The notes beneath the pieces were generated by a model. It saw only the letters and a program-made list of their open reading frames with translations. It did not search any database and had not been told where the DNA came from. A stretch of 64,000 bases of DNA from assembly GCA_020510985.1 (NCBI GenBank), contig CM035843.1, forward strand, positions 157,059,922-157,123,921. The letters are read 5' to 3'. Made by a program: the position numbers and the translations under genes. This DNA comes from Pholidichthys leucotaenia. Taxonomy: Eukaryota. Each line of letters opens with the position of its first letter. Positions within the stretch are counted from its first letter, which is position 1. Below are positions 9,030-63,220 of this stretch, piece by piece.

Positions 9030-10945
9030 AGGGCCTTTTCCACTAGCACGCTTTAGCGCGACACGGGACGGCTCAGCACGCTTTGTACGCTTTTCCACAA
9101 GCCCCAACACGGTTTAACAGCCGCGATTCTCAGCCCTGCTGCAGGGCAGGGTACAGCAGTGCTGAGCTGTGCCGTGTTGTGACGTTAACAGACTGGTCGC
9201 CGCTGATTGGTCAGGTCGTAACCGGCACTGATTGGTCAGGTTGTAACCGCCCCTCTCCTCCTCCTCATCTACCAAATCTTCACGACCTTCTCAATAAAGT
9301 TTTTGAAAAAAAAAAAAAAAATCTTCACGACCGCCTTTACTCAGCACGCAACCATTGTTGGCGGTTCCTTTTCAGTGTATTGCTGTGCTATTTTCATTTA
9401 TTCTCTATCAAAAATGTCTTCACGTAATAAGGGTGTTCCATGGACCAATAAGGAGCTGCAGTGTCTGCTCACTGCATTGTCAGACGAACGTATTCAGCAC
9501 GAGTTAGACGGAGCCGCCCGGAATGAAAAAATATACCGGGAGGTCTGGACATCGGAGTCCTTTAACGGTGAGTTTTAATTTTTTTTTTATTGTGCGTTTT
9601 TTTGCAAATATATTCGGTAAGACGCTCAGTTTATTTATGCAATAAAAAAGCTGTTCATTTGTGGATGGATCGCTGCTTTATTGCAGCACACTGCGGACTA
9701 AAGCTTTTATTTTAATTATTCATGTGAACAATACGCTGAAATAAGCGTATGTATTCTTGTTAAAAACTATTGTCTTTTCTGTATATATTGCACTTTCGTG
9801 CTGTATTTTATTGTGTGCATTTTCCTTGTAGAATCATCCCACGCGTCCGCCGCGACAGCCCGCACGGATTATTCAACCGAGCCTTCCTGACCCACAGCAG
9901 GCAGAGACGGCTTCATTCATCCGAGTCGTGACCCAGTTTGGGAAGCTGGTGTAGACACTCAGTGGTCGGCGTGTATAAAATGTCGATTAACCTTCATGTT
10001 GTGTTGCAAAGTTTTTTTTTCTGTTAATATTTTGTATATAATAAAATGGAATTGTTTTGGAAAGTGTGGTTTGTCTGTTATAACACTGAATTATAAAACA
10101 GTATAATTACATAGAAATTCCATTGCCTAGTCTGATCTGATCTTCCTGTCAGGGGTCAACCATTGTAAAGGTAATGTAATTTTTAACTAGACCAAAAAAC
10201 AAATGTTTTTGTAAGCTTTCTGTTCTTTTTATTGAAATATCATAAAAAATTAGCCCCACATGATCCAGTTCTAAACTTTGGGTACATTTTTTATGTTAAC
10301 TTATAAGAAGTTGCACAGTTGGACTTTAAAATGCAGCAGGAGAGACTGATCAAGCTTACAAGTCAAAGTAGGTAAAAAAAAGTAAGTATATGTAAATTGA
10401 ATGTTCTATCGGCATTCCAAATTCAGAGAATTACAATACTTTAGAAGGAGTGTAGCCTCATCTAAACGGAAAATAATAATACTGTTGTTCCAAACGTTGA
10501 CCTGAAGGTGAAAAACATGATTTTTTTTTAATTCAGTACATCCAAAATGCCCTAGGATGTGGTGTTGGACAGTGTGCCACCGTCTCATTATTTAATACGA
10601 ATAAAAACAAGTTTCAGCTCATTATTTCTAGGTCATTTGGCAGTTAATTCAAAACAAAAGTGACTTGTGTTGTTGCAGCTTAGTTATGAGATAAAATTAA
10701 TTGTGAGATAAATCCACAGAGCGAGCAAGGCAATAATCCTTGGATCCCTTTTTGTCTTGTGTAAATAAGGACACAGTCAGGTGCGTAACGTCACGGGAGT
10801 GTGGCCCCGCCTCGCTGAGAATCTGCTGCTGCCCCGCTTCTAAAACCTCCTAACACAAACCATCACAGCACAAGCACAACAGCGTGCTAATGGAGACAGA
10901 AGCATTCCGAGCCGTACTGAAGTGAATCGAGCCGTACCGAGGTGT
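9030..10945 (+). mobile_element. Non-autonomous PIF/Harbinger DNA transposon with ~180-bp TIRs, a TAA target-site duplication, a Myb/SANT-like ORF and no transposase.
   Basis: Left end AGGGCCTTTTCCACTAGC and reverse-complemented right end AGCCTGTTTTCCACTAGC. TAA is duplicated at 9027..9029 and 10946..10948. The uninterrupted LINE 3' UTR is seen as the reverse complement of 51400..51440. Confidence 0.7.
9414..9567 (+). CDS. Myb/SANT-like (Harbinger accessory-protein type) first coding exon, followed by a GTGAG splice donor.
   Basis: MSSRNKGVPWTNKELQCLLTALSDERIQHELDGAARNEKIYREV resembles Harbinger-associated Myb/SANT-like DNA-binding domains. A donor GGTGAG lies at 9567..9572. Confidence 0.45.
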
Positions 10946-11700: not shown

Positions 11701-12140
11701 TACACAGTGCAGGAGCACTGCAGCTAGATGGTATCAACAGCATTACAGTTAGTTAAACTACCCAGCAGAATATAAATATGGACTCAGACAGTATATTTCA
11801 CATTTGAATGAACAGTGTTGTATTTGTTGTACAAATTTGTACTGAATTTATATTTATACATTTAGTTATATTTACAGGCTACATATTGTGACATTGTGAG
11901 GGTTCACACAAGAAAGAAGAGATGACTGTGGCGAACAGGCTTTATTTATACACACACTCAACACAGAACAGAGGGGAGGTCATTCACACAGACCCCTGTC
12001 TCACTTATGGTGACACAAACACATGATCAATCACTGCTGAATTGGACGCATGCGCACGCAGCGACCGGCAGCGGGTGAAAAAAGTTTGACGTCTGTGTCT
12101 CTGTTTTCATGCACTTTAATGTGTTTTAACAGAATTCTCT

Positions 12141-12935
12141 GTGCCATTTTTGTCTTTGAATGTTTATGGACTATATAACGAAGAGCTCCCTGGTTCCATC
12201 AGTATGGATTTCCTTCTTGTTTTTGCACTGTCGTTTCTTTCTTACCGACTCTTTGTCTCGGAGGTAAGCACGATCGCAATCATGCCGGGAAGAACGCAGT
12301 ATTCCAGAAAAATGTTACTGCATTTAAACATGGAAAATGCAGCATCTGTGTTTGAGTCTGTGCCGCAACTGCCGGACTTTATTTTAAGAGATTTTCATGG
12401 ACACAGTGATGAAAAGAGAGACAAGAAGAGGAAATGCGGAAGATTAAACCTGAGGAGGCGTCAGCTTAACCACATTCCTCTTCCTTCCATTATTATGGGG
12501 AACGTACAATCCCTGAGAAATAAAGTGGATGAAATTCAAGGAAATGTACGATATCAGAAGGATTTCAAGAACTGCTGTGTCATGGCTTACACGGAGACGT
12601 GGCTTACGGCACATGACCAGGATGCAGACCTGTGGATTGACGGCTTTGGAGCCCCACTTTGCTCGGATCGGCAGGAAGAGGTAACGGGGAAATGTCAGGG
12701 GGACGGCGTATGCTTGTATATTAATAAACAGTACTGTACATCTGTCACGGTCAGAGAGCGCACCTGTACACCAGATGTGGAGCTTCTGTCCGTGTCGACT
12801 ACACCCCTTTTATCTACCTCTCAAGTTCCTCCAACTTTTTATCTGCCCCGCAAGTTCCCACAACTTTTCATAACAACTGTGTACATTCACCTGAGGGCAG
12901 ATGCTGCCTCACCTCCAGCACCGTCTTTGATGTAG
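12141..12935 (+). CDS. Family-2 LINE ORF2 N-terminal region plus APE endonuclease.
   Basis: NVQSLRNKVDEIQ ... MAYTETWL endonuclease motifs. Confidence 0.7.
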   Translation: MPFLSLNVYGLYNEELPGSISMDFLLVFALSFLSYRLFVSEVSTIAIMPGRTQYSRKMLLHLNMENAASVFESVPQLPDFILRDFHGHSDEKRDKKRKCGRLNLRRRQLNHIPLPSIIMGNVQSLRNKVDEIQGNVRYQKDFKNCCVMAYTETWLTAHDQDADLWIDGFGAPLCSDRQEEVTGKCQGDGVCLYINKQYCTSVTVRERTCTPDVELLSVSTTPLLSTSQVPPTFYLPRKFPQLFITTVYIHLRADAASPPAPSLM

Positions 12936-13352
12936 TACAGCGGTTGCAGTCGATTTCCCCAGAGGCTCCAAATTTTATCATTGGGGATTTTAACCATGTG
13001 TCTTTAATGAAGACACTTAAAAACTTTTATCAGTATGTCTCCTGCCAAACCAGGCGAAAAAAAAACATTGGACCTGTGCTACGGCTCCATAGAGAGGGCC
13101 TTTAAATCTCTTCCCCTTCCTCCTTTAGGATCCTCAGATCACAACTGTGTACATTTGCTGCCCACATATAAAACTGCTCTCAGAAGAGGCAAGGCGAAGA
13201 CCAGAGACATAAACATGTGGACAGAGGATTCAGTGCACTGCCTCCAGAAATGCTTTAACTGTATGGACTAGGAGGTGTTCACGCTCACCTGCAGAGAAGA
13301 TTTGGACTCTTTAGTGGACGTGACATGCTCATACATGGCTTTCTGAAGAGAC

Positions 13353-14429
13353 ATGATCGTTCCACGTAAACGTGTCAAAATATATCCCAACAACAAGCCA
13401 TTGGTTACAAAATCAGTTAAATCCTGCTTACAGAGGAAAGCACCTGCCTTTAAACAGGGGGTTGTTTCTGAGCTACAGGTAGCCACAAAAGAGCTGAAGG
13501 CCGAAATTTTAAGAGCAAAACAGAATTATAAATCAGAGTTGGAAAGCAAGATGGCAACGAAGAAGCTTGGTTCAGCCTGGGCCAGTATGAAAACTATTGC
13601 AGACCTTCAGAGCACAGAGCACAGTAATTGTATGTTTTTAGATGGTTTTAGTTCAGACACAGAGCTGGCTAATGCTCTTAATTGTTTTTATGGTCATTTT
13701 GATTCATTTGATTTTAGCACAGAATCCCAAGATTTGAAACAGAAACTCAAAGACAATCAGCACTTTAATATTGAGGTGCAGGATGTTAAAAGGGCATTCT
13801 GTGCTGTAAGAGTGAACAAAAGTCAGGGCCCTGATAATATATGTGGGCGCTTGGTAAAGTCCTGTGCACATGAACTGAGTCCTGTGTTTCACTATATTTT
13901 CAATAAGTCCTTACAGACACGACATGTGCCTAAGATCTGGAAAGATGCTGTGGTTGTCTCTGTTCCAAAATCCAGCTGTCCTAAAATGGTCAATGATTTT
14001 AGACCAGTTGCTTTGACCTCAATTTTAATGAAAATTTTTGAAAAACTGGTCAGATTTGAGGTCCTAGAGCAGACTGAGCATGCATTGGATCCTCTGCAGT
14101 TTGCCTATAGGCCTCACAGAGGAGTGGAGGACGCCACTGTCACTCTGTTTAACATGCTTTTTAAACATCTGGATTTTAATGGGACACACGCCAGGCTTTT
14201 ATTTGTGGACTTTTCTTCCGCTTTTAATACAGTCCAACCTCATATTTTAGTTGAAAGGCTCCTGCAACAATTTGATTTGAGTAATAATCTGGTGGGTTGG
14301 ATTCTGGATTTTTTAACCAACAGGACACAGAGAGTAAGGGTCAATGGTACATTGTCTGACCAAAAGTGTTCTTCTACTGGCTCTCCTCAGGGGTGTGTGT
14401 TGTCACCACTACTCTTCATCCTGTACATA
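13353..14429 (+). CDS. Family-2 LINE reverse transcriptase, N-terminal two thirds.
   Basis: [30 protein letters not shown] and [13 protein letters not shown] motifs. The ORF runs on into the Tc1 TIR. Confidence 0.8.
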
Positions 14430-14721
14430 CAGTGGGGTAAAAAAGTATTTAGTCAGCCACCAATTGTGCAAGTTCTCCCACTTAAAAGATGAGAGAGGTC
14501 TCCAATTTTCATCATTGGTATACCTCAACTATGAGAGACAAAATAAGAAAAAAAAATCCAGAAAATCACATTGAAGGATTTTTAATTAATTAATTGAATG
14601 GTAAATTCCTCGGTAAAATAAGTATTTGGTCAATAACAAAAGTTCATCTCAATACTTTGTTATATACCCTTTGTTGGCAATGACAGAGGTCAAACGTTTT
14701 CTGTAAGTTTTCACAAGGTTT

Positions 14722-15225
14722 TCACACACTGTTGCTAGTATTTTGGCCCATTCCTCCATGCAGATCAGTGATGTTTTGGGGCTGTCGCTGGGCAACACAG
14801 ACTTTCAACTCCCTCCAAAGATTTTCTATGGGGTTGAGATCTAGAGACTGGCTAGGCCACTCCAGGACCTTGAAATGCTTCTTACGAAGCCACTCCTTCG
14901 TTGCCTGGGCAGTGTGTTTGGGATCATTGTCATGTTGAAAGACCCAGCCACGTTTCATCTTTAATGCCCTTGCTGGTGGAAGGAGGTTTTCACTCAAAAT
15001 CTCACGATACATGGCCCCATTCATTCTTTCCTTTACACAGATCAGTCGTCCTGGTCCCTTTGCAGAAAAACAGCCCCAAAGTATGATGTTTCCACCCCCA
15101 TGCTTCACAGTAGGTATGGTGTTCTTTCTCCTCCAAACACGACAAGTTGAGTTGTTACCAAAAAGTTCTATTTTGGTTTCATCTGACCATATGACATTCT
15201 CCCAATCCTCTTCTGGATCATCCAA
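14722..15225 (-). CDS. Tc1 transposase DDE catalytic domain (C-terminal part).
   Basis: [11 protein letters not shown] ... HDNDPKHT ... [10 protein letters not shown] (D, D, E spacing). Confidence 0.85.
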
Positions 15226-15242
15226 ATGCTCTCTAGCAAACT

Positions 15243-15638
15243 TCAGACGGGCCTGGACATGTACTGGCTTAAGCAGGGGGACACGTCTGGCACTGCACGA
15301 TTTGAGTCCCTGGCGGCGTAGTGTGTTTCTGATGTAGCCTTTGTTACTTTGGTCCCAGCTCTCTGCAGGTCATTCACTAGGTCCCCCCATGTGGTTCTGG
15401 GATTTTTTCTCACCGTTCTCGAGATAATTTTGACCCCACGGGGTGAGATCTTGCGTGGAGCCCCAGATCGAGGGAGATTGTCAGTGGTCTTGTATGTCTT
15501 CCATTTTCTAATAATTGCTCCCACAGTTGATTTCTTCACACCAATCTGCTTACCTATTGCAGATTCAGTCTTCCCAGCCTGGTGCAGGTCTACAATTTTG
15601 TTTCTGGTGTCCTTTGACAGCTCTTTGGTCTTGGCCAT
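15243..15638 (-). CDS. Tc1 transposase N-terminal paired-like HTH DNA-binding domain.
   Basis: [19 protein letters not shown] ... [11 protein letters not shown]. It is separated from the DDE ORF by one stop or frameshift. Confidence 0.8.
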
Positions 15639-16008
15639 AGTGGAGTTTGGAGTCTGACTGTTTGAGGTTGTGGACAGGTGTCTTTTATACTGATAACGAG
15701 TTCAAACAGGTGCCATTAATACAGGTAACGAGTGGAGGACAGAGGAGCCTCTTAAAGAAGAAGTTACAGGTCTGTGAGAGCCAGAAATCTTGCTTGTTTG
15801 AAGGTGACCAAATACTTATTTTACTGAGGAATTTACCAATTAATTCATTAAAAATCCTTCAATGTGATTTTCTGGACTTTTTTTTCTCATTTTGTCTCTC
15901 ATAGTTGAGGTATACATATGATGAAAATTGGAGACCTCTCTCATCTTTTAAGTGGGGGAACTTGCACAATTGGTGGCAGACTAAATACTTTTTTGCCCCA
16001 CTGTAAAC

Positions 16009-16725
16009 ATGTGTCGGAGCAGACATGACAACAGACACATTATAAAGTATGCTGATGATTCAGTTGTTGTCAGTCTCCTCCAGGATGGTGAGAGTAGCCA
16101 CGGCCCAGTAGTTGATGATTTTGTTCACTGGTGTGAGGATTCCTACCTGCAGCTGAATACGACAAAAACTAAAGATATGATTATTGACTTTAGGAGGAAA
16201 ACTCCCAGGCACAAAGTCACTGTACTAAAAGGTCAGACCACTGAATGTGTGCAATCCTTCAAATATCTCAGGACGATTATTGATAGTCATTTAAACTTTG
16301 AAGAGAACTGTGAAAGGGTGTGCAAAAAGGGTCAGCAACATTTGCATTGTTTAAGGAAACTTGCACGCTTCCAAATTGACTGAACCATAATGACAATGTT
16401 TTATCAGGCTTTTATTGAATCTGTTTTATCCTTTTCTTTAGTGTCATGGTTTGGTCAGACAAAACTGAAACAGAGGAAATCCTTGGATCAGGTAGTTAGA
16501 TGGTCCAGTCGTTTGCTTGGTGAGTCACAGCTGAGCCTGACATCCCTGTACACCAGACAGGTACAGAGGATTGCTACCTCCATTTTAAAAGATGACTCCC
16601 ACCCTTTGCACTGCCACTTTCAGCTTCTTCCCTCCAGACGGAGGTTTGCTGTCCCAAAATGTAAAACCCAGCGCTACAAAAACAGCTTTGTTCCTGCTGC
16701 TGTTAAAGAGTTTAACAAGATGTAA
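16009..16725 (+). pseudogene. Family-2 LINE RT C-terminal region in two ORFs.
   Basis: IIKYADDSVVV ... LQLNTTKTK, and the C-terminal conserved region shared with ORFs at 40325..40687 and 34183..35547. Confidence 0.75.
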
Positions 16726-17104
16726 CAATATATTGCACATAATTTAGTTACCTATTTATTAATTTTATTTTATATTTACTTATTTTTGTAGTTTTTTTAT
16801 TTGGGTTCTAAATCTTTTATTGGGTTTTAGACTTTTGAGTTTAGCCTCTTTGATTAGTCTTTAACTTTTTAATATGACCCTTCTCTCTTATCTCTTTGTT
16901 TTTTCTCTTATCTCTTTGTCCTATGTCCTTATTGGTGGAGCCTTGAGTACTTTTATCATGTTTATAGTCAGCTTCATGCGTGCCTGTGTTTGTGTTCATG
17001 TTGAATGTAATTGTGAATGTAACTGTGGTTTGTAAATATGGATGTCACCTGACTGCAAAACAAATCTACCTACGGGTACAAATAAAGTAACCTGAACCTG
17101 AACC
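16726..17104 (+). repeat. Family-2 LINE 3' UTR and tail. Its last ~45 bp are shared with the SINE at 61674..61983.
   Basis: GACTGCAAAACAAATCTACCTACGGGTACAAATAAAGTAAC compared with the SINE 3' end GACTGCAAACCAAATCTACCTACGGGTACAAATAAGTAAC. Confidence 0.8.
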
Positions 17105-17720
17105 TGCTCTACTGGTCTTATAACACTGTTGTGTCATTATAATGTGGTTATAATGATACAGCAATAACACTTAGAACACGCGAATAATACTCTTTGAATC
17201 CTCCGTGGCGCAAGCATGCCGGGAGAATCCCCGCCCCCTTAACACAGCCCCAACGCTACACTGTCCCCCCCGGACTGGTTTCTGTCTCCAGAATAATAAC
17301 GTCCAGCTCAAAAGTCCAACACGAATCCGTCCAGGTGTCGGGGCGGCCGCCGTTGTCGGTGACCAGTATGTACAGGCCCACTAGTGTCCGTCTGCGCCTC
17401 GGCCGGAGTATCTTGTCGGGATGAAGGCCCCGGCTCGACCACCCGTGGGGCAGATGGCTGATACTGGGCGAGACGGTCACGGTGGAGTACCACGACCCAG
17501 TCTCTTTTCTGCAGCCTCACCCTGTACACTACATCCGACAGTTGCTGTATGACCTCGCAGAGTCCCGACCAATGGCTCGCCAGTTTTGGTGACAGTCCCC
17601 TCTTTCGCTCCGGGCAGAAAACCCAGACTCAATCTCCTGGTGCAAAGTCCCTCCTGGCAGCGGGAGTCATATGCCCGCTTCTGCCAGCTCCCCGCCGCCG
17701 CCAGGGCCTCCCGAGCCAGT

Positions 17721-24047: not shown

Positions 24048-24246
24048 TGTGACGTTGTGAGGGTTCACACAAGAAAGGAGAGATGACTGTGGCAAACAGG
24101 CTTTATTTATACACACACACTCAACACAGAACGGAGGGGAGGTCATTCACACAGACCCCCGTCTCACTTATGGTGACAAAAACACAAGATCAATCACTGC
24201 CCTACTGGTCTTATAACACTGCTGTGTCATTATAACTGCGTTATAA
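24048..24246 (-). repeat. G1 5' LTR (reads TGTATCAT...GTCACA in element orientation).
   Basis: Identical in order to the split 3' LTR at 11887..12037 plus 17105..17172. The gag N-terminal coding region begins immediately inside it. Confidence 0.7.
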
Positions 24247-24476
24247 TGATGTTGTAGAAGTTGGGTTAATCATCTCAGACTGGATGCAGAGGGTAAACAG
24301 AGAAGGACAATAGGTATTGAGATGTGAGAAGGGCGGTTGATATAAAAGGAGAGACCCTGGTGTATTGAGATATGCTTTTTCTGTGTATGACTGATGTGAG
24401 AGTGAATAAAGTCATCTGCTGCATAAATCTGCCTCCGTTATTTGCACTCTCCACACTGGTGACCTCTTGACAAATT

Positions 24477-28631: not shown

Positions 28632-30229
28632 AGCCAAAAGGATGTGAGGACTGAAACTTGGTCTGAGATTCTGGGGGGAGTGATGTAGAAGCTGGCTTAA
28701 TCATCTCAGACTGGATGCAGAGGGTAAACAGAGAAGGACAATAGGTATTGAGATGTGAGATGGGCGGTTGATATAAAAGGAGAGACCCTGGTGTATTGAG
28801 ATATGCTTTTTCTGTGTATGACTGATGTGAGAGTGAATAAAGTCATCTGCTGCATAAGTCTGCCTCTGTTATTTGCACTCTCCACAGTGTCCCCTTAATA
28901 CAGCCCTAACGTTACAATATATTTATACGATCTAACAGCTAAGTTAATGCTAGGTGGCAAGACATTTTGTTACAGTTACTATGTCAGCATAGCAACTATT
29001 TTATATGAATTCTTCATGGAATCATAATGTGATGAGAGTATATTCGGTTTGTTTAATCAAAACAACAAAAGTGTGTGGGCATCAGAAAGTTTTTCTATCA
29101 GCATCCATGTTTAGCTTCCCACTGGAGTCGAGGCGGTGGAAACGTTAGATACTTCAGTTTATAATACGACTTTGCACCAGAGATAGAAGAGCCTGAATAA
29201 ACCTCTGATGACCTCCCACAGTCACTCCATAAACTGAGGTTTCCTTTTGATTCTTGAAGATCAGCTGTAGAATAAAGAAAACATTTAAGAATCTCCTCGT
29301 CTTCCCACGGATTTTCTTTCTTTTTCTTTTATTTATCAGTGAGGGATTCTAGTTTGTGATGGGCAAAAACAGCAGCTGTAAGAATCCCCACTGGGAGCCC
29401 GCATGTGCTTGTGCTGGAAAGGCGGTCGCAGTGTGTAAACGTGTGCGCCTGCATTAATCACGCAGTGAGACGTGGGTCTAGTGAGCACTTTATTACAGGC
29501 AGCAACACCGATTCTGGCCTGAAAACATCTCAGTTCACGGACCCCGTAGAGGTTCCCCTGAGGTGGTGCTCCAAGTTGATGTGATTCATCACGCCGTTCC
29601 TCACAGGGTTTTGCTTCTTCACACTTCTCACTCCTGAAGGTGTTCCATCATGTCTGGTTGCTGGGGAAGCCACTCAGCTCCCTGGCATTTATGGAATAAA
29701 TGATCAGCGGTGCAGTGGTGAGCACTGTAGCAGCACAGCAAGAATCAGTCAATCAATCAAACTTTATTTGAATAACACTTTTTAAACATTAGATGTTGCG
29801 CAAAGTGCTTTACATAGATAAAAACAGTAGACACATTTAGCTACATATTTTACATGATACATTCCCACCCCTTCCAACCCTCCCATAAACAAACCCACAA
29901 ACACAACACACACAGGCACATACATCACCCCCTACTTCTCTTACACACATATAAAATAAAAGAGACATTGCTCGACACCGAGGCACCATCCTGTGGAGCC
30001 CCCCATGCCGGGATATCACACAGCCAGTAACCACAGAAGGTGCCACAAGGGCCTCCCCAACCAGGACAGGCCGGGGCCCGCACCACAGCTGTAGGGAGTG
30101 GTATAAAGCCCCCACCCACCCAAGCAAGAGTGACCCACGAGACCAACACCTCTGCAGATGAGCCAGGCAGCATCCGGCATGAGGGGCTCCACTGAGGAAA
30201 CACCTGAACTAAAGCACATAAATACAAGA

Positions 30230-39738: not shown

Positions 39739-39772
39739 CTCAGACCTAGAAGGTCACAGGATTGATCTCACC

Positions 39773-39965
39773 CCCTGATCATTAGTGACCCCTCTGTGGG
39801 GAGTTTGCATGTTCTTCTACTCCGGTTTCCTCCCACAGGCCAAAAACATGCAGGTGAGGTTAACTGGAGACTCTAAAGTGGCCCTAGATGTGAATGTGTG
39901 TGTGACTTGTGAAGGGATTGGCTGCCTCATCCATTCAGGTGGATGCCCTGTAAATTTAAAAATAA
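39773..39965 (+). mobile_element. 5'-truncated fragment of a tRNA-derived fish SINE (central domain and tail).
   Basis: GGAGTTTGCATGTTCT ... CCGGTTTCCTCCCACAGGCCAAAAACATGCAGGTGAGGTTAACTGGAGACTCTAAAGTGGCC, similar to the central domain of the SINE at 61674..61983. Confidence 0.6.
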
Positions 39966-56978: not shown

Positions 56979-57462
56979 AAAGATATGACGTAACCATTAA
57001 ACATTCCCAGTGTGGAGAATGTGGAAATGACGAGGCTGAGTTTATCTCATGAGTCAGGTTTATTCCATTCTCCAACATCATCAAAAACAGAAAGAGAAAG
57101 AAACCCCTAGACATTCGTCCTTTTATACCCCAGGACATCAAAGCACACAGTCACATTGTATTTAATCCCAAGTAACAATGTGTCTTCTTCCAGATCTTCT
57201 CACCTACACCTAAAGTCACTGGTGGCCAGGAAATCCCTCAAGGCCATCTCTTTGCATACAAAAGGCCACATTTCACATCCTCCTGTTATCTCCTAGGAGG
57301 CTCAGTCCTTTTGTTCATCTGAGACGTGAAGCATACAGTAAGCATACAGTAATATACATGTGAAGCATATGAAACCCACATATGTGTCCCACATGACCCC
57401 CCCCAAACGTCTAAGATGGAACAATGTAATAACAGTCTGCATGTCATGAAAAATCACACACA

Positions 57463-58634
57463 TCAGTCCATATGCTGCTTGGGCCTCAGTCTTCTCCCGT
57501 ATCTGCTGTAAGCAGGCTTTACCACCTCCGCGGTGCCCTCCTGCTGGGGAGCTGCTGTCTGAGGATGAGAACTGTTAGTCAATCCCTGTGGGTGCTCTGG
57601 GGAATGCTCCCTAGGGGGTCTGCCGTGCCGAGGAGCCCTGGCCAACTGCACACCTTCGTCAGCCACCACAAAAGCGGGTTTGAGCCTGTTTATGCCAATC
57701 ATTTCTTTTCTGCCCCCCAAATCTAGCAAAAAATGCTTTTCTCCTGTCTCCAGCACTCTAAATGGTCCATCATAAGGTGGTCGCAACGGTGGGCGATGGG
57801 CATCGTGTCTGACAAAAACAAACTCCGCATTTTTTAAAGCCTTAGGCACAAAAACGCGCTGAAAACTGTGGTGAACGGGGCCAGGCAGCGTGCTTGATTC
57901 CGTGCTACTCTGCAACCGCTGAGCTGGGGAGCACTCTGGCGCCGGATTATCTGGGAGAAATTCCCCGGGCAGCCGAAGTGGCTGTGCGAAAACTAGCTCA
58001 GCCGGGGAGGCTTCTAAATCCTCTTTAGGTGCAGAACGCAACCCCAATAAAACCCATGGTAGCTTGTCCACCCAATTTGCATCCGTAAGCGACGCTCTGA
58101 GGGCCGCCTTCAATGACCTGTGAAAACGTTTGCATAACCCGTTAGCCTGGGGATCGTTGCCCCCAGGCTGCAGGCGATCACTGACCAAAGTTCGGAAACA
58201 AATTGAAGGCCTCTGTCGGACGTAATGTCCGACGGGACTCCAAAACGCGCTACCCATGCTGTTAAAAACGCGCGCGCCACCTCCTCGGCTGTGGTTGACG
58301 ACAGTGGGACCACTTCCGGCCAGCGCGTGGTGCGGTCAACCATTGTCAGAAGATGTGTGCACCCCTGTGAGGGCGGGAGGGGGCCTACGAGGTCCACGTG
58401 AACATGATCAAACCTCTTAGCTGGGATGTGAAACGGCTCCAAGGGAGCTCTCGTGTGTCTGTGTACCTTGGCTCGTTGACAAGCCATACAGGCTGCCGCC
58501 CACTCTCTAACTTGTTTGCACAGGTTCGGCCATACAAATTTCTCTCCCACCATTTTGACCGACGCGCGCACTCCCAGGTGCGCCAGAGAATGGATCGAGT
58601 CAAAAACGCGGCGGCGCCACGCGGCTGGTTCCAC
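57463..58634 (-). pseudogene. A2 integrase, in two overlapping ORFs with one frameshift.
   Basis: HSLAHLGVRASVKMV...CMACQRAK (HHCC), HVDLVGPLP and TSDRGLQFVS motifs; C-terminus similar to the A integrase. Confidence 0.75.
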
Positions 58635-58825
58635 ATGATGTGGTCGCCCAGTGGAGACATTGCAGATTGGGGGGGGGCATACCGTCTTGCAGCACCCTGT
58701 TCTCCAGCCTTAACCCTGTTGGTCCAGACTGGAGCGCGCGCACGTCCGCGTCATTAACCTGATCCGCGGCCATGGCTGCATAATCTATCCCTACCCAGAC
58801 TGGGGCCGTGTGCACTTCTGCGTCG

Positions 58826-60751
58826 CTAACCCGATCTGCGGCCATGGCTGAAATCTACCCCTACGCGGGCTGGAGCTGCCACGGCGCGCGAGAGGCAGTC
58901 TGCCACTACATTAAGTTTACCCGCCACATGCTGGATATCGGTAGTAAACTCTGAGATCGCGGCCAGCTGTCTCTGCTGCCGGCCCGACCACGGTTCTGAA
59001 ACCTTGGCCATCGCGAAAGTCAGCAGCTTGTGGTCCATGAACGCGGTGAAACGGCGTCCTTCCAGCCAGAACTGGAAGTGGCGAATGGCCAAGTGGAGAG
59101 CTAACAACTTCCTGTCGAATGCGCTGTATTTTCGTTCACTATCGCGCAAGGTCCTGCTGAAAAAGGCGAGTGGTTGCCAAGCTCCGGCTACATACTGCTC
59201 CATGACCGCCCCTATGGCCACATCTGACGCTTCAGTAGTGAGCGCTATGCGGGCCGTTGGGACTGGATGTGTTAACAATGCAGCATTTGCCAGGGCTGTT
59301 TTAACTTCCGAGAATGCGCGCTCTCGCTCTGGAGACCATTCGATTTTATTTGTGGGTTTTTGTTTTTTTAGTGCAGCATACAATGGTTGCATGAGCTGCG
59401 CTGCGCGGGGGAGGAAACAGTTATAAAAATTCACCATTCCCAAAAACTCCTGTAACGCTTTGACCGTTTGTGGCTGAGGAAAATTTGTTACTGCGCGCAC
59501 TTTGTCAGGCAGAGGAACTGCTCCTTCTGGAGAGACGTGATGCCCCAAAAAATCAATCTGCGTCACCCCGAACTGACACTTCGCTGGGTTGATTATTAAC
59601 CCGTGCTCTCCCAACCTCCGGAAAACTGCCATGAGGTGGTTTTCGTGTTCGTCTTCGGACGCACTGGCTACCAATATATGGTCCAGGTAGATGAAAACGA
59701 AGGGGAGATCGCGCAACACCGCGTCCATCATGCGTTGGAACGTCTGCGCCGCGCCTTTAAGCCCAAACGGCATGCGCAAAACCTCGAATAGCCCGAACGG
59801 AGTTATTACCACTGTTTTGGGTATGTCTTCAGTGTGCACTGGGACCTGGTGGTAACCGCGTACCAAGTCTATCTTAGAAAAAACGCGCGCCCCCGCCAAA
59901 TGAACTGAAAAATCTTGGATATGCGGGATTGGGTAGCGGTCGTGCGCTGTAGCGTTGTTCAACCTGCGGAAATCTCCGTAAGGTCGCCTCGAGCCATCAG
60001 TTTTCGGGACCATGTGAAGCGGTGAAGCCCATGGGCTTTTCGAACGCCTGATGATGCCCAACTTTTCCAGGTTGGCGAACTCCTCACGCGCTATGGTCAG
60101 TTTAGCTGAATCCAAGCGCCGAGCTTTTGCAAAAACGGGCGGTCCGGTGGTAGTAATAAAATGTTCCACCCCGTGTTTAGCCATGGTCGCCGAAAATGTT
60201 GGAACCGTGAGTGCTGGGAACTGAGTGAGCAGTGTGTGGAACTTACCACTTGCAACTGTGACGTTGGCTTGTGCTGTTGGCGGGGCCACTCGAGCTGTAC
60301 AGGGAATAGAATAAAAAGAGAGTGCATTAACCAGGCGCCTGTTAGCAAGATCAACCAACAAACCATGTGAGCACAGAAAATCAGCCCCTAACATATTGAA
60401 ATTGACTGCAGCTATGACAAAAGTCCACTCAAATGTACGGCCGTGTAGGGACAGAAGCAGAGTCCTCTCACCAAAGGTCTTAATCGCCAAGTCGTTCGCT
60501 GCTGACACCCCGGGACCACTGGAAGGTGCCAGCCGGTCAGCGGAGGAAGGTGTGATGAAACTCAGCTGGGAGCCTGTGTCCACGAGGAAATGCCTCCCCG
60601 AGCGCGCATCCTTCAAGTAGAGCAGCTTGTTCTCCTCCCCGAGGGCCGCAGCTGCTACCAACCCACGGTCTTGGCATTTCCCGAGCGCTTGAAATGGCAC
60701 GGTGGTATACATTTGCGTGCCCTCTCTGTGAAGCGGCGATGGTAGAAACAA
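58826..60751 (-). CDS. A2 pol: protease, RT and RNase H in one 641-aa ORF.
   Basis: FLVDTGSQLSFI, FGLKGAAQTFQRMMD, FIYLDHILVASASEDEH, KCQFGVTQIDFLGHHVS, TEASDVAIGAVM and MDHKLLTF motifs. Confidence 0.85.
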   Translation of the reverse strand: MFLPSPLHREGTQMYTTVPFQALGKCQDRGLVAAAALGEENKLLYLKDARSGRHFLVDTGSQLSFITPSSADRLAPSSGPGVSAANDLAIKTFGERTLLLSLHGRTFEWTFVIAAVNFNMLGADFLCSHGLLVDLANRRLVNALSFYSIPCTARVAPPTAQANVTVASGKFHTLLTQFPALTVPTFSATMAKHGVEHFITTTGPPVFAKARRLDSAKLTIAREEFANLEKLGIIRRSKSPWASPLHMVPKTDGSRRPYGDFRRLNNATAHDRYPIPHIQDFSVHLAGARVFSKIDLVRGYHQVPVHTEDIPKTVVITPFGLFEVLRMPFGLKGAAQTFQRMMDAVLRDLPFVFIYLDHILVASASEDEHENHLMAVFRRLGEHGLIINPAKCQFGVTQIDFLGHHVSPEGAVPLPDKVRAVTNFPQPQTVKALQEFLGMVNFYNCFLPRAAQLMQPLYAALKKQKPTNKIEWSPERERAFSEVKTALANAALLTHPVPTARIALTTEASDVAIGAVMEQYVAGAWQPLAFFSRTLRDSERKYSAFDRKLLALHLAIRHFQFWLEGRRFTAFMDHKLLTFAMAKVSEPWSGRQQRQLAAISEFTTDIQHVAGKLNVVADCLSRAVAAPARVGVDFSHGRRSG

Positions 60752-61437
60752 AGGACGTCGTCTGCTCCGTGTTTCTTGGCCCCTGCCGCCGCCGTCGTCG
60801 GTGAGTCTGGTACTGCTGGCTCTGGCCCCCTGCCATCTCCGGACGTTGCGCCGAGCTCCGCTGCCGCGGCCATGGCCGCACGCTGTTTGGTGGCATTGAC
60901 GAGTCGTTGTGCCTCCTGGCCCAGCTCGCGGTAGTCTCGTCGGGCCAACAGTGGCGAACTGGCCAGGGTCACTCTCACCGCTGACGGTAGGGTCCTGAGG
61001 AAAAGGTGGGCGAAGATGAAGTGATCATCGTCAGAGTCTTTCAGTCTCAACAGCTTCTCCATCAGGTCCGCAGGCCTGTCGCTTTCAAATTCAGTCAGCG
61101 CCAGGAGCCCCTCTGCTCGCTCCTCCACCGAGGGGGTGAAGTACCGGATGAGTGCAGCCTTCAACGCGCCGTACTTGTCGCTGTCCGGCGGCTGGTTGAT
61201 CAGACTCTCCACATGCTGGGCTGTGTGGTTGTCCAGTTTTGCAACCACATGGTAGAACTTTGTGGCGTCTACCGAAATCCTCCGGAGGTTGAACTGCGCC
61301 TCGACCGCGTTAAACCAGGAGCGCCGATTGTTCTGCCAGAAGTCCAGTAGCTGAACTGTGGCTGCGTTCATTTGGCTGGCTCCTGACGAGTCTGGCTCGG
61401 GAGAATTTCTTTCACTCATGATACGTCTTAGGGTCAC
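60655..61437 (-). CDS. A2 gag-like protein (260 aa).
   Basis: LLDFWQNNRRSWFNAVEAQF and CFYHRRFTERARKCIPPC. It parallels the A gag. Confidence 0.7.
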   Translation of the reverse strand: MTLRRIMSERNSPEPDSSGASQMNAATVQLLDFWQNNRRSWFNAVEAQFNLRRISVDATKFYHVVAKLDNHTAQHVESLINQPPDSDKYGALKAALIRYFTPSVEERAEGLLALTEFESDRPADLMEKLLRLKDSDDDHFIFAHLFLRTLPSAVRVTLASSPLLARRDYRELGQEAQRLVNATKQRAAMAAAAELGATSGDGRGPEPAVPDSPTTAAAGAKKHGADDVLCFYHRRFTERARKCIPPCHFKRSGNAKTVGW

Positions 61438-61673
61438 CAGTGTGGAGAATGTGGAAATGACGAGGCTGAGTTTATCTCACGAGTCAGGTTTATTCCATTC
61501 TCCAACATCATCAAAAACAGAAAGAGAAAGAAACCCCCAGACATTTGTCCCTTTATACCCCAGGACATCAAAGCACACAATCACATTGTATTTAACCCCA
61601 AGTCACAATGCGTCTTCTTCCAGGTCTTCTCACCTCCACCTAAAGTCACTGGTGGCCAGGAAATCCCTCAAGG

Positions 61674-61983
61674 GCTGCACGGTGGCGCAGTGGTTTAGCA
61701 CTGTGGCAGCACAGTTTTACCCTCGGCCGGGGGACCGCGGGGATCATGAGATCGTGGGTTTGATCCCAGCCACCGACCAACAGTGAGCTGTGTGGAGTTT
61801 GCATGTTCTCCCCGTGTTGCGCGGGTTTACTCCGGGATTTCTCCGGTTTCCTCCCGCAAACCAAAAACCTGTAGGTTTAGGGCGCTCACGCACGCAGCGA
61901 CCGGCAGCCGGTGGCTTGTCACCAGACTGCAAACCAAATCTACCTACGGGTACAAATAAGTAACAAAAAAAAAAAAAAAAAAA
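61674..61983 (+). mobile_element. tRNA-derived SINE with a tRNA-like head, a conserved central domain, an L2-family-2-derived 3' end and a poly(A) tail of about 23 nt. It is inserted in the A2 5' LTR.
   Basis: A-box-like TGGCGCAGTGG at 61683 and B-box-like GGTTTGATCCC at 61758. Central domain TGTGGAGTTTGCATGTTCTCCCC. Its 3' 45 bp equal the end of the LINE at 17050..17090. The LTR sequence is contiguous in the other copy at 57235..57260. Confidence 0.8.
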
Positions 61984-63220
61984 AAGGCCATCTCTTTGCA
62001 TACAAAAGGCCACATTTCACATCCTCCTGTTATCTCCTAGGAGGCTCAGTCCTTTTGTTCATCTGAGACTTGAAGCATACAGTAAGCATACAGTAATATA
62101 CATGTGAAGCATATGAAACCCACATATGTGTCCCACACCAGTCTGATTTGACAGTAGCCACTATTGCTCACGTGCTCATTGTTCCATTGAAACTAGCTTC
62201 CATCCATCCATCCATCCATGCATCTACAGTTTATCCAGTGTCCGGGTCACAGACACAGCAGGGCGTTCAAGGCGTTCTCCTCCCATTAAGACCAGACAAA
62301 CAGCAATCAAGACTGGCGGTTCAGGTTTTTGTACAGACGGCGATATTGTTATAAAAAGGTTAATAGGCAGCGGTGTGATGACACAGCTGGATGGTGACAT
62401 CATCACGCCAGCCAATAAATGAGGAGAGTCGGCCATCTTAGGCCTCTCTCGACTCACAGCAATATAGTGTTCGGTATACAGCAAAGCTGTACTGTATTAT
62501 TAGTAGCTGATGTAATAAAGTTCATGTTTTGAGCAGACGCCACTCTCTGTGCATCATTCTGGGTTTACAGGCATAACAGATATCTCCATCATTAACATTC
62601 TGCACTGACGCAGAGACCCGTATAACAATGCATCTAAAAACCGAGAAAGTTCCGCACCTCTGCTGTCATTTGAATGTAAACGTCTTCATCACTACCACCC
62701 CAGGAGGACTAGCTGCAGCAACAGCGAAAGAACCAACAGGACTAACTGTACTCCTCAGAACTAGCAACTTCTACTATGTCTTTGTCTTGCACTTCTGAGT
62801 TGCCCGATTTGCGATTCTTTGGTAAACTGTACCAAATCTGATGTTCTACAGCTGCTTCAAACCCGAGGATGAACCGCCTGTAGCTGTATCATCCATTGTG
62901 TTCTGTGGACCAGGGGCCTCATGTACAAAGGGTACTTATGCACAAAAACATGGCATACTGTACGTCCTTTTCCACGGAAAATTTCGGATGTGTCTAGAAT
63001 GAAATGACCATGGAAATATGCGCAGCCCCACATCAACTTCATGGCTGGTGTACGTATGTTTCTACTGTTATTGGTCCGCTGGCAACACTTAGAGGTGATG
63101 TTGGGAGACTGATGATGACGTGAAAATGATTGTACACACCAGAGACACATGATAAACAAACATCCAACTGTGCACAATTAGATAGTGGATATAAAAACAA
63201 GCGCAAAGAAGTGCAGAAAT

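Follow-up and report, generated by a model that had tools for sequence, protein, structure and literature searches.

SINEs that carry both ends of a partner LINE are well documented for the RTE and Vingi clades, and the template-switch model for their origin is established for the same two (Kojima, 2018, PMC5786205). SINE bodies are largely of unknown origin, and Kojima's work showed that the 5' parts of LINEs can seed them; in its Repbase-wide survey such 5' contributions came from RTE and Vingi elements only, and why only some LINEs yield bipartite derivatives was left unexplained (PMC5786205). L2 LINEs need a 3' stem-loop for retrotransposition (PMC4176376, PMC1636434), and recognition of the tail structure by the L2 protein has been shown experimentally for UnaL2 and ZfL2 (PMC1636434, PMC4176376).

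Here we describe a single SINE from fish DNA in which both ends of an L2-type LINE are present. Like Bov-tA/Bov-A, Mar-1, AfroSINE, Ped-1/2 and BuceSINE, it joins a head of the small-RNA type to a LINE 5' part and the extreme 3' end of a LINE. As in the bipartite SINEs described by Kojima, the 3' part is the partner LINE's extreme 3' end and the middle part comes from the 5' end of the same LINE; the partner, however, is L2-like rather than a member of the RTE or Vingi clade. An internally deleted LINE and a template switch are proposed here as they were for the RTE bipartite SINEs (Okada and Hamada, 1997; Kojima, 2018, PMC5786205). Unlike those elements, the present SINE has an L2-type partner and a poly(A) tail instead of the LINE repeat, and its junction is a predicted, co-varying 5'-3' helix, of which we found no description for the RTE bipartite SINEs.

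Other described systems share some of these features. The order of parts (head, conserved SINE core, LINE 5' part, LINE 3' part) is that of SINE2-1_ACar and WALLSI2 (PMC5786205), which suggests that an existing SINE recombined with a bipartite LINE; where those two combine a CORE domain with Vingi or RTE parts, a V-like core is combined here with L2 parts. With UnaSINE1/UnaL2 and ZfL2 (PMC1636434, PMC4176376) our element has in common an L2-type partner, a shared 3' tail with a hairpin, short repeats at the end of the LINE and, presumably, recognition of the tail by the LINE protein, but those SINEs are described with sharing of the 3' tail only, and no 5' module or 5'-3' pairing is mentioned for them. 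V-SINEs such as HE1, DANA and HAmo SINE (PMC2653535) combine a tRNA-type head with an L2-type 3' tail and a conserved central domain of the type GGAGTTTGCATGTTCTCC...GGTTTCCTCCC, to which the V-like core of our element may correspond; our element has in addition a LINE 5' module between core and tail. Finally, only the two ends of an autonomous element are kept, as in RIME/ingi, NARTc/L1Tc and the Vingi derivatives, although these are without a Pol III head, keep the 5' end for a promoter or ribozyme and belong to other clades. The V-SINE superfamily itself reportedly goes back to Ogiwara in 2002.

The phenomenon is therefore known in kind; what is new is the L2 clade of the LINE and a structural rationale for keeping both ends. 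In the full-text literature that we searched, the coverage of which is incomplete, neither a bipartite L2-derived SINE nor pairing between the 5' and 3' ends of a LINE was described.

Results

A composite SINE inserted as one unit

The 64-kb stretch of DNA that was analysed (the window) is repeat-dense teleost DNA with LINEs, LTR retrotransposons and a Tc1 element, and without an obvious host gene. One of its LTR retrotransposons, at 57007-62137, has a gag-pol region on the minus strand (57463-61437) and LTRs that are 97.2% identical. The SINE lies on the plus strand at 61674-61983 (310 bp), within the LTR at 61437-62137, and is known here from this one copy in the 64 kb. Its flanks, 61437-61673 and 61984-62137, are contiguous in the partner LTR of the same retrotransposon (57007-57393; 376/387 positions identical to the SINE-bearing LTR), where the empty site at 57240-57243 reads CTCAAGG/CCATC. 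The insertion therefore comprises exactly 61674-61983, the boundaries given in the original prediction, and is flanked by a 4-bp target site duplication (TSD), AAGG (61670-61673 and 61984-61987). The target site, CCTT/GA, is not TTTT/AA-like. Since the SINE sits in one LTR, it was inserted after the LTR element had integrated, which gives a relative upper age. From the empty site in the sister LTR, the AAGG duplication and the 97.2% identity of the LTRs, the entire composite moved as one RNA-derived unit, and did so recently.

From 5' to 3' the SINE consists of a head, a V-like core, an L2 5' module, an L2 3' module and an A-tail. The head has an A-box-like Pol III promoter element, TGGCGCAGTGG (61683-61693, plus strand), which fits TRGCNNAGTGG exactly, and a B-box-like element, GGTTTGATCCC (61757-61767, plus strand), with one mismatch to GGTTCGANNCC. 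The two are spaced 63 nt apart and form the sole A-plus-B pair on the plus strand of the window; some 30 extra nucleotides lie between them, together with a TTTT run (61715-61718, plus strand) that is a potential Pol III terminator. A tRNA head had been predicted, and this did not hold up beyond the consensus matches to the A and B boxes: ARAGORN found 0 tRNA genes in the head, and Rfam returned no tRNA match at the gathering threshold or at E<=10, its only matches on the SINE being two sub-threshold chance ones. Compared with a SINE2, the element is thus short, non-coding, retroposed with a TSD and equipped with an internal Pol III promoter of A and B boxes, and differs in that its head has no recognisable relation to a tRNA. 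Translation of its three open frames gave no matches in a protein database search, and no copies were found when bacterial genomes and viral contigs were scanned with a 19-mer of the SINE tail and a 5' 19-mer.

The central core, GGAGTTTGCATGTTCTCC...GTAGGTTTAGG (61794-61881, plus strand), is putatively V-domain-like and is 75-86% identical to part (39759-39855) of a second V-like SINE fragment. This fragment occupies 39759-39965 (plus strand) and has a different 3' part, without L2 modules. A related SINE had been proposed at 39773-39965: the relationship stands for the B-box region and core, the only parts shared (75-86% identity), and fails for the L2 module, which is absent. At 29707-29746 there is also a head fragment with the canonical ...CACAGCAAGAA continuation and without the roughly 30 extra bases of the SINE studied here. 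Together these two V-like pieces show the V-type backbone to occur without the L2 module as well.

Downstream of the core, the L2 5' module, GGGCGCTCACGCACGCAGCGACCGGCAGCCGGTG (61880-61913, plus strand), corresponds to bases 7-40 of the LINE described below. A filler of three bases, GCT, separates it from the L2 3' module, TGTCACCAGACTGCAAACCAAATCTACCTACGGGTACAAATAAGTAAC (61917-61964, plus strand), which corresponds to the final 49 nt of that LINE ahead of its tail repeats and contains a small UACC-UACG-GGUA hairpin (61941-61952). The SINE ends in a pure A19 tail (61965-61983, plus strand), or A21 with the two A of the TSD included.

The resident L2-type LINE

The partner is a full-length L2-type LINE of the second LINE family in the window (family 2; 12038-17106, plus strand), about 3.49 kb long without a Tc1-like insert. 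It has a single frame of 955 codons, from 12282 to 16725 with the insert removed, interrupted by five in-frame stops. Pfam recognises RVT_1 (E 4e-28) and ALKBH8_N, the latter being typical of such elements, and relatives have an AP-type endonuclease domain (Exo_endo_phos in close relatives). The closest LINE relative in the protein database is 61% identical; for the young transposable-element ORFs of the window, the best protein match has 71% identity (Parambassis ranga). The 3' end comprises a small hairpin, which co-varies across relatives, then AATAAAGTAAC and then a (CTGAAC)n microsatellite, present here as (CTGAAC)2.5 (17092-17106, plus strand). With an AP endonuclease (seen in relatives) and reverse transcriptase in a single ORF, a 3' stem-loop and short terminal repeats, the predicted architecture is that of the L2 clade, and features of RTE elements are absent from this LINE. 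We presume its placement in the L2 clade from this architecture and from sequence motifs.

The 5' end of this copy is fixed by an uninterrupted paralogue of its insertion site at 24048-24250, which joins 11887-12037 directly to 17104-17157 (94% and 89% identity, respectively). As the flanks are contiguous there, the LINE starts at 12038 and has a 4-bp TSD, CTGC (12034-12037; the other copy, 17104-17107, overlaps the tail repeat). The Tc1-like DNA transposon nested in its reverse transcriptase region (14430-16003, minus strand) has duplicated a TA, has the termini CAGTGGGG...CCCCACTG and carries a decayed transposase on the minus strand. Elsewhere in the window, at 9276-9332, an 18-bp fragment, TTCTCAATAAAGTTTTTG, followed by A16 stands between 12-bp direct repeats, ATCTTCACGACC; this retrocopy with its long TSD implies L1-type, poly(A)-dependent retroposition in the genome.

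The SINE matches both ends of the LINE

When the element was compared with the window by BLASTN, the SINE 3' module (61917-61964) was 46/49 identical to LINE positions 17043-17091 (E 5e-15), a segment on the plus strand that includes the LINE hairpin (17067-17078) and AATAAA. The module stops at the last base before the LINE repeats, and A19 stands in place of the repeat tail. Upstream, SINE positions 61889-61913 were 24/25 identical to LINE positions 12053-12077 (E 9e-6), and similarity to the consensus 5' end of L2 relatives reaches back to 61880 (GGGCGC...). The corresponding segment of the LINE, the conserved 5'-terminal motif of the L2 lineage, GGACGCATGCGCACGCAGCGACCGGCAGCGGGTG (12044-12077, plus strand), starts 6 nt from the LINE 5' end, and the SINE departs from it by three clustered differences (ATGC to TCAC). 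The original prediction that the SINE ends in the 3' terminus of this LINE and carries its extreme 5' end just upstream is thus borne out at both ends, the 5' match beginning at base 7 of a LINE whose first base, 12038, is set by its empty site. It had been feared that the 5' similarity might be a GC motif common to unrelated sequences. Allowing <=3 mismatches, a 24-mer of the 5' motif occurs at two sites in the window, the SINE and the LINE, and in 0/100 dinucleotide-preserving shuffles, so in this window the match is not a common GC motif. The last ~85 nt of the SINE ahead of its tail are accordingly an internally deleted resident L2-type LINE with both termini kept. This does exceed the usual sharing of tails, as predicted, but is not new in kind, being known for RTE and Vingi elements (Kojima, 2018, PMC5786205).

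Beyond the conserved core of the motif, GGCAGC.GGTG is common to the SINE and the resident LINE only, which makes the resident LINE family, or one closely related to it, the likely donor. The conserved L2 5' motif also contains a palindrome, GCGCATGCGC (12046-12056 in the window, 215-224 in family L001 and 7-16 in L080), which is broken in the SINE (GCGCTCACGC), although the next 18 bases are identical. It resembles a binding site for NRF-1 and may act as an internal promoter element for Pol II.

The 5' motif in related L2 families

Relatives of the LINE were compared on contigs from other samples that encode LINEs of 44-61% amino-acid identity. In other fish samples, related L2 families keep the 5' motif, GGGCGCATGCGCACGCAGCGACCGGCAG, close to their 5' ends. 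It stands upstream of the ORF as GGGCGCATGCG(C/T)ACGCAGCGACCGGCAG in five families (L001, L002, L061-64, L065 and L080) and as a variant, GGCGC...GGCGAC...GCAGC, in three (L067, L068 and L071). Within the 5' UTR it lies at the terminus, or <=~32 nt from it, where the end can be judged: in L067 a flanking tandem repeat limits its distance from the 5' end to <=~5 nt, and in L080 the contig begins 5 nt before it. In the L068 family it is ~226 nt from the 5' end, and hence not terminal in every family; the stretch upstream of it there is common to four contigs, of which 3/4 reach differing 3' flanks. The possibility that the LINE itself extends upstream past the motif was rejected, as no similarity upstream of it was found among the four families compared (window, L001, L002 and L061) and the window copy has its 5' end defined by the empty site.

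In none of the relatives (>=8 families) does V-type SINE sequence adjoin the motif. Its presence in the 5' UTRs of L2 relatives free of such sequence shows that the motif passed from LINE to SINE and not in the reverse direction. All relatives, like the resident LINE, end in microsatellite repeats of 4-7 nt, and the SINE in A19. The 5' UTRs of the relatives are otherwise highly variable: L068-L070 and L072 have a (TA)n run within bases 1-226, upstream of the motif, and other families have long tandem repeats between motif and ORF (L065, 100-950; L066, 1-485).

A predicted helix between the two ends of the LINE

The bases that immediately follow the 5' motif of the LINE are predicted to pair with those that immediately precede its conserved 3' tail. 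In the window copy the 5' strand, GCAGCGGGUGA (12068-12078), and the 3' strand, UCACCUGACUGC (17045-17056), both read on the plus strand, would form 11 pairs including one G.U, with one bulged A and -16.9 kcal/mol. Pairing at this position is predicted in 8/8 L2 families. The hypothesis was set down after the window copy, L001 and L002 had been seen, and the five further families fetched later all show the pairing (5/5).

For the tests, segments were anchored on conserved sequence, the first running for 22 nt from the conserved GGCAG onwards and the second comprising the 27 nt up to and including the conserved CTGC just before AAAACAAAT. Across the eight families the mean duplex energy was -19.6 kcal/mol for cognate segments against -13.4 kcal/mol for non-cognate ones, every row and every column (8/8 each) had its cognate partner as the best one, and among all 40,320 permutations none but the cognate arrangement reached its score. 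Shuffling of the 3' segment gave p values from 0.000 to 0.048 per family in the five families tested. The signal was gone when either segment was slid by >=10-27 nt (7-family analysis), and within each of seven elements the homologous site was among the few best partners (z -2.5 to -3.4). The helix has a conserved outer half, GCAG/CUGC, and an inner half that varies between families yet stays complementary (GGGUGA/UCACCU, AAAAG/CUUUU, AAGCGUU/AAUGCUU and AAAGAGU/ACUCUUU). When the segments were large and unanchored (62 x 100 nt), cognate pairs were only weakly favoured (465/5040 permutations), and GC- and GU-rich noise dominates such duplex scans. Column-wise RNAalifold recovers the outer 5 pairs only, one of them with compensatory changes, because the positions of the bulges differ between families. 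As a prediction from folding energies and comparison of families, these analyses show a 5'-3' helix with co-variation in the L2 lineage, and this helix may have a functional role.

A second complementary site, in the ORF of the LINE ~2570 nt upstream of the 3' strand, was rejected, as its pairing is not cognate-specific (684/5040 permutations). This ORF site (~12960-12990, at the end of the endonuclease region) is the best or a near-best partner of the 5' segment in several L2 families, and in L002 a 12-mer found there, CCTTTTACCTGC, is repeated at the 3' site.

The 5' module of the SINE ends with the 5' strand of the helix, and its 3' module begins 3 nt before the 3' strand. The deletion junction thus lies at the apical end of the helix, so that the long-range helix of the LINE becomes a local hairpin in the SINE: GCAGCCGGUG, loop GCUUGU, CACCAGACUGC (61904-61930, plus strand; predicted at -11.8 kcal/mol, or -15.4 kcal/mol when its halves are treated as a duplex). 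The UACC-UACG-GGUA tail hairpin follows 10 nt downstream. By our own estimate, both breakpoints of a 3.4-kb deletion would fall at the apex of the helix by chance with a probability of ~1e-3 or less, and chance placement is therefore unlikely. Within the helix the SINE differs from the LINE at two positions, on opposite sides of one pair, which becomes an uncompensated C x A.

Discussion

The SINE is, in our judgement, probably a retrocopy of a composite element in which a Pol III head and a V-like core were joined to a miniature L2, the latter having arisen as a bipartite LINE derivative that kept the helix, with spread driven by L2 elements. On this reading it would belong to a multi-copy family. 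Mobilisation by an L2 LINE of the resident type is plausible, with the proviso that the tail is poly(A) and not (CTGAAC)n.

On this account an internally deleted, bipartite L2 RNA or cDNA that kept the helix would have arisen first. The reverse transcriptase may have passed between the two strands of the helix, or deletions may have been lost unless they kept the helix, if only such variants stay mobile. Splicing was rejected as the cause of the deletion, since its breakpoints (GGTG/AAAAAA ... TATGGA/TGTCACC) are without GT...AG. On reaching the LINE 5' end, reverse transcription could then have switched onto a V-type SINE RNA. The junction between core and L2 sequence, ...GGTTTAGG/GGGCGC, lies within a stretch where both sources look alike, and at this junction the V-like core (compare 39850-39860) resembles the LINE 5' ends, TTTGGGCGC, in L061 and L065. 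The resulting SINE would be transcribed by Pol III from its A and B boxes, and its RNA would be mobilised in trans by an L2 reverse transcriptase through the 3' tail structure, as by a 'stringent' LINE. The TSD of the SINE is as long as that of the LINE (4 bp each), and that of the poly(A) retrocopy (9288-9321) is 12 bp. Both the A19 tail and the clustering of changes in the 5' motif favour a distinct RNA lineage over LINE RNA itself as the template.

A different course of events would make this copy a one-off chimera, in which reverse transcription started on an L2-tailed RNA, jumped from the LINE 3' region to its 5' region and from there to the RNA of a V-type SINE. A single copy was seen in 64 kb, none was retrieved from the protein, metagenome, bacterial and viral collections searched, Pol III would be hampered in transcribing this copy by the TTTT run in its head, and template switching at LINE 5' ends is an accepted source of such chimeras (PMC5786205). 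Two precise jumps would be needed in a single event, however, and a poly(A) tail in place of (CTGAAC)n speaks against LINE RNA itself as the template. The three clustered differences in the 5' motif suggest that the module has for some time been evolving separately from the LINE, and the insertion begins precisely with the first base of the head and is a unit of normal SINE size. We therefore regard a one-off chimera as unlikely. Still less probable is that a poly(A)-dependent LINE of the L1 or Tx1 type mobilised the SINE, the L2 parts being relics. The pure tail of A19-21 fits such machinery, and the polyadenylated retrocopy with its 12-bp TSD indicates that machinery of this kind is active in the genome. 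Yet the TSD of the SINE has the 4 bp of the L2 LINE rather than the 12 bp of the retrocopy, its target, CCTT/GA, is not TTTT/AA-like, and its L2 3' module is 94% intact, hairpin included.

That the 5' similarity is a chance match of GC-rich sequence, or that the LINE captured the segment from a SINE, we consider effectively refuted, with hardly any probability left to it. It is true that the 19-mer core of the motif, CGCACGCAGCGACYGGCAG, has 51 exact matches in GC-rich bacterial metagenome contigs, which shows that GC-rich strings of the sort turn up repeatedly by chance when a database is very large. In the window, on the other hand, the match is confined to two sites and is absent from all 100 shuffles, the motif occupies the homologous 5'-UTR position in at least eight L2 families without V-type SINE sequence, and the family-specific GGCAGC.GGTG is found in the SINE and the resident LINE alone. 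The metagenome matches were also considered as possible copies of the SINE and were rejected, all 51 loci being GC-rich bacterial chance hits with no fish DNA among them.

Returning to the helix-keeping bipartite origin, bipartite SINEs would now extend to an L2-type LINE, that is, to the clade whose members are partners of V-SINEs, MIR and many fish SINEs. The SINE also suggests a concrete, testable reason for keeping both ends of a LINE: the ends pair, and precisely this pairing survives in the SINE. Should the helix prove functional, it would be a new cis element of stringent-type LINE retrotransposition. More tentatively, and with somewhat more doubt than belief, we propose that the co-varying 5'-3' helix cyclises L2 RNAs and contributes to the cis signal for their reverse transcription, and that non-autonomous parasites succeed by fusing the two strands of this helix into a hairpin beside the 3' tail. 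Such a cyclisation helix might mark full-length templates for reverse transcription. Were this reading true, it would be the first explanation of why the LINE 5' end persists in some internally deleted LINEs and SINEs, and L2 would join the LINE clades that seed SINE bodies.

L2-type LINE reverse transcriptases were also encountered on contigs binned as bacteria, namely L072 and L073 (Brevinema sp. MAG CAMQSH01) and L074 and L076 (Metamycoplasmataceae MAG CBDHHR01). L072 belongs to the same L2 family as the contigs L068-70 from fish samples, and the presence of these genes in bacterial MAGs looks like contamination of the bins with eukaryotic host DNA.
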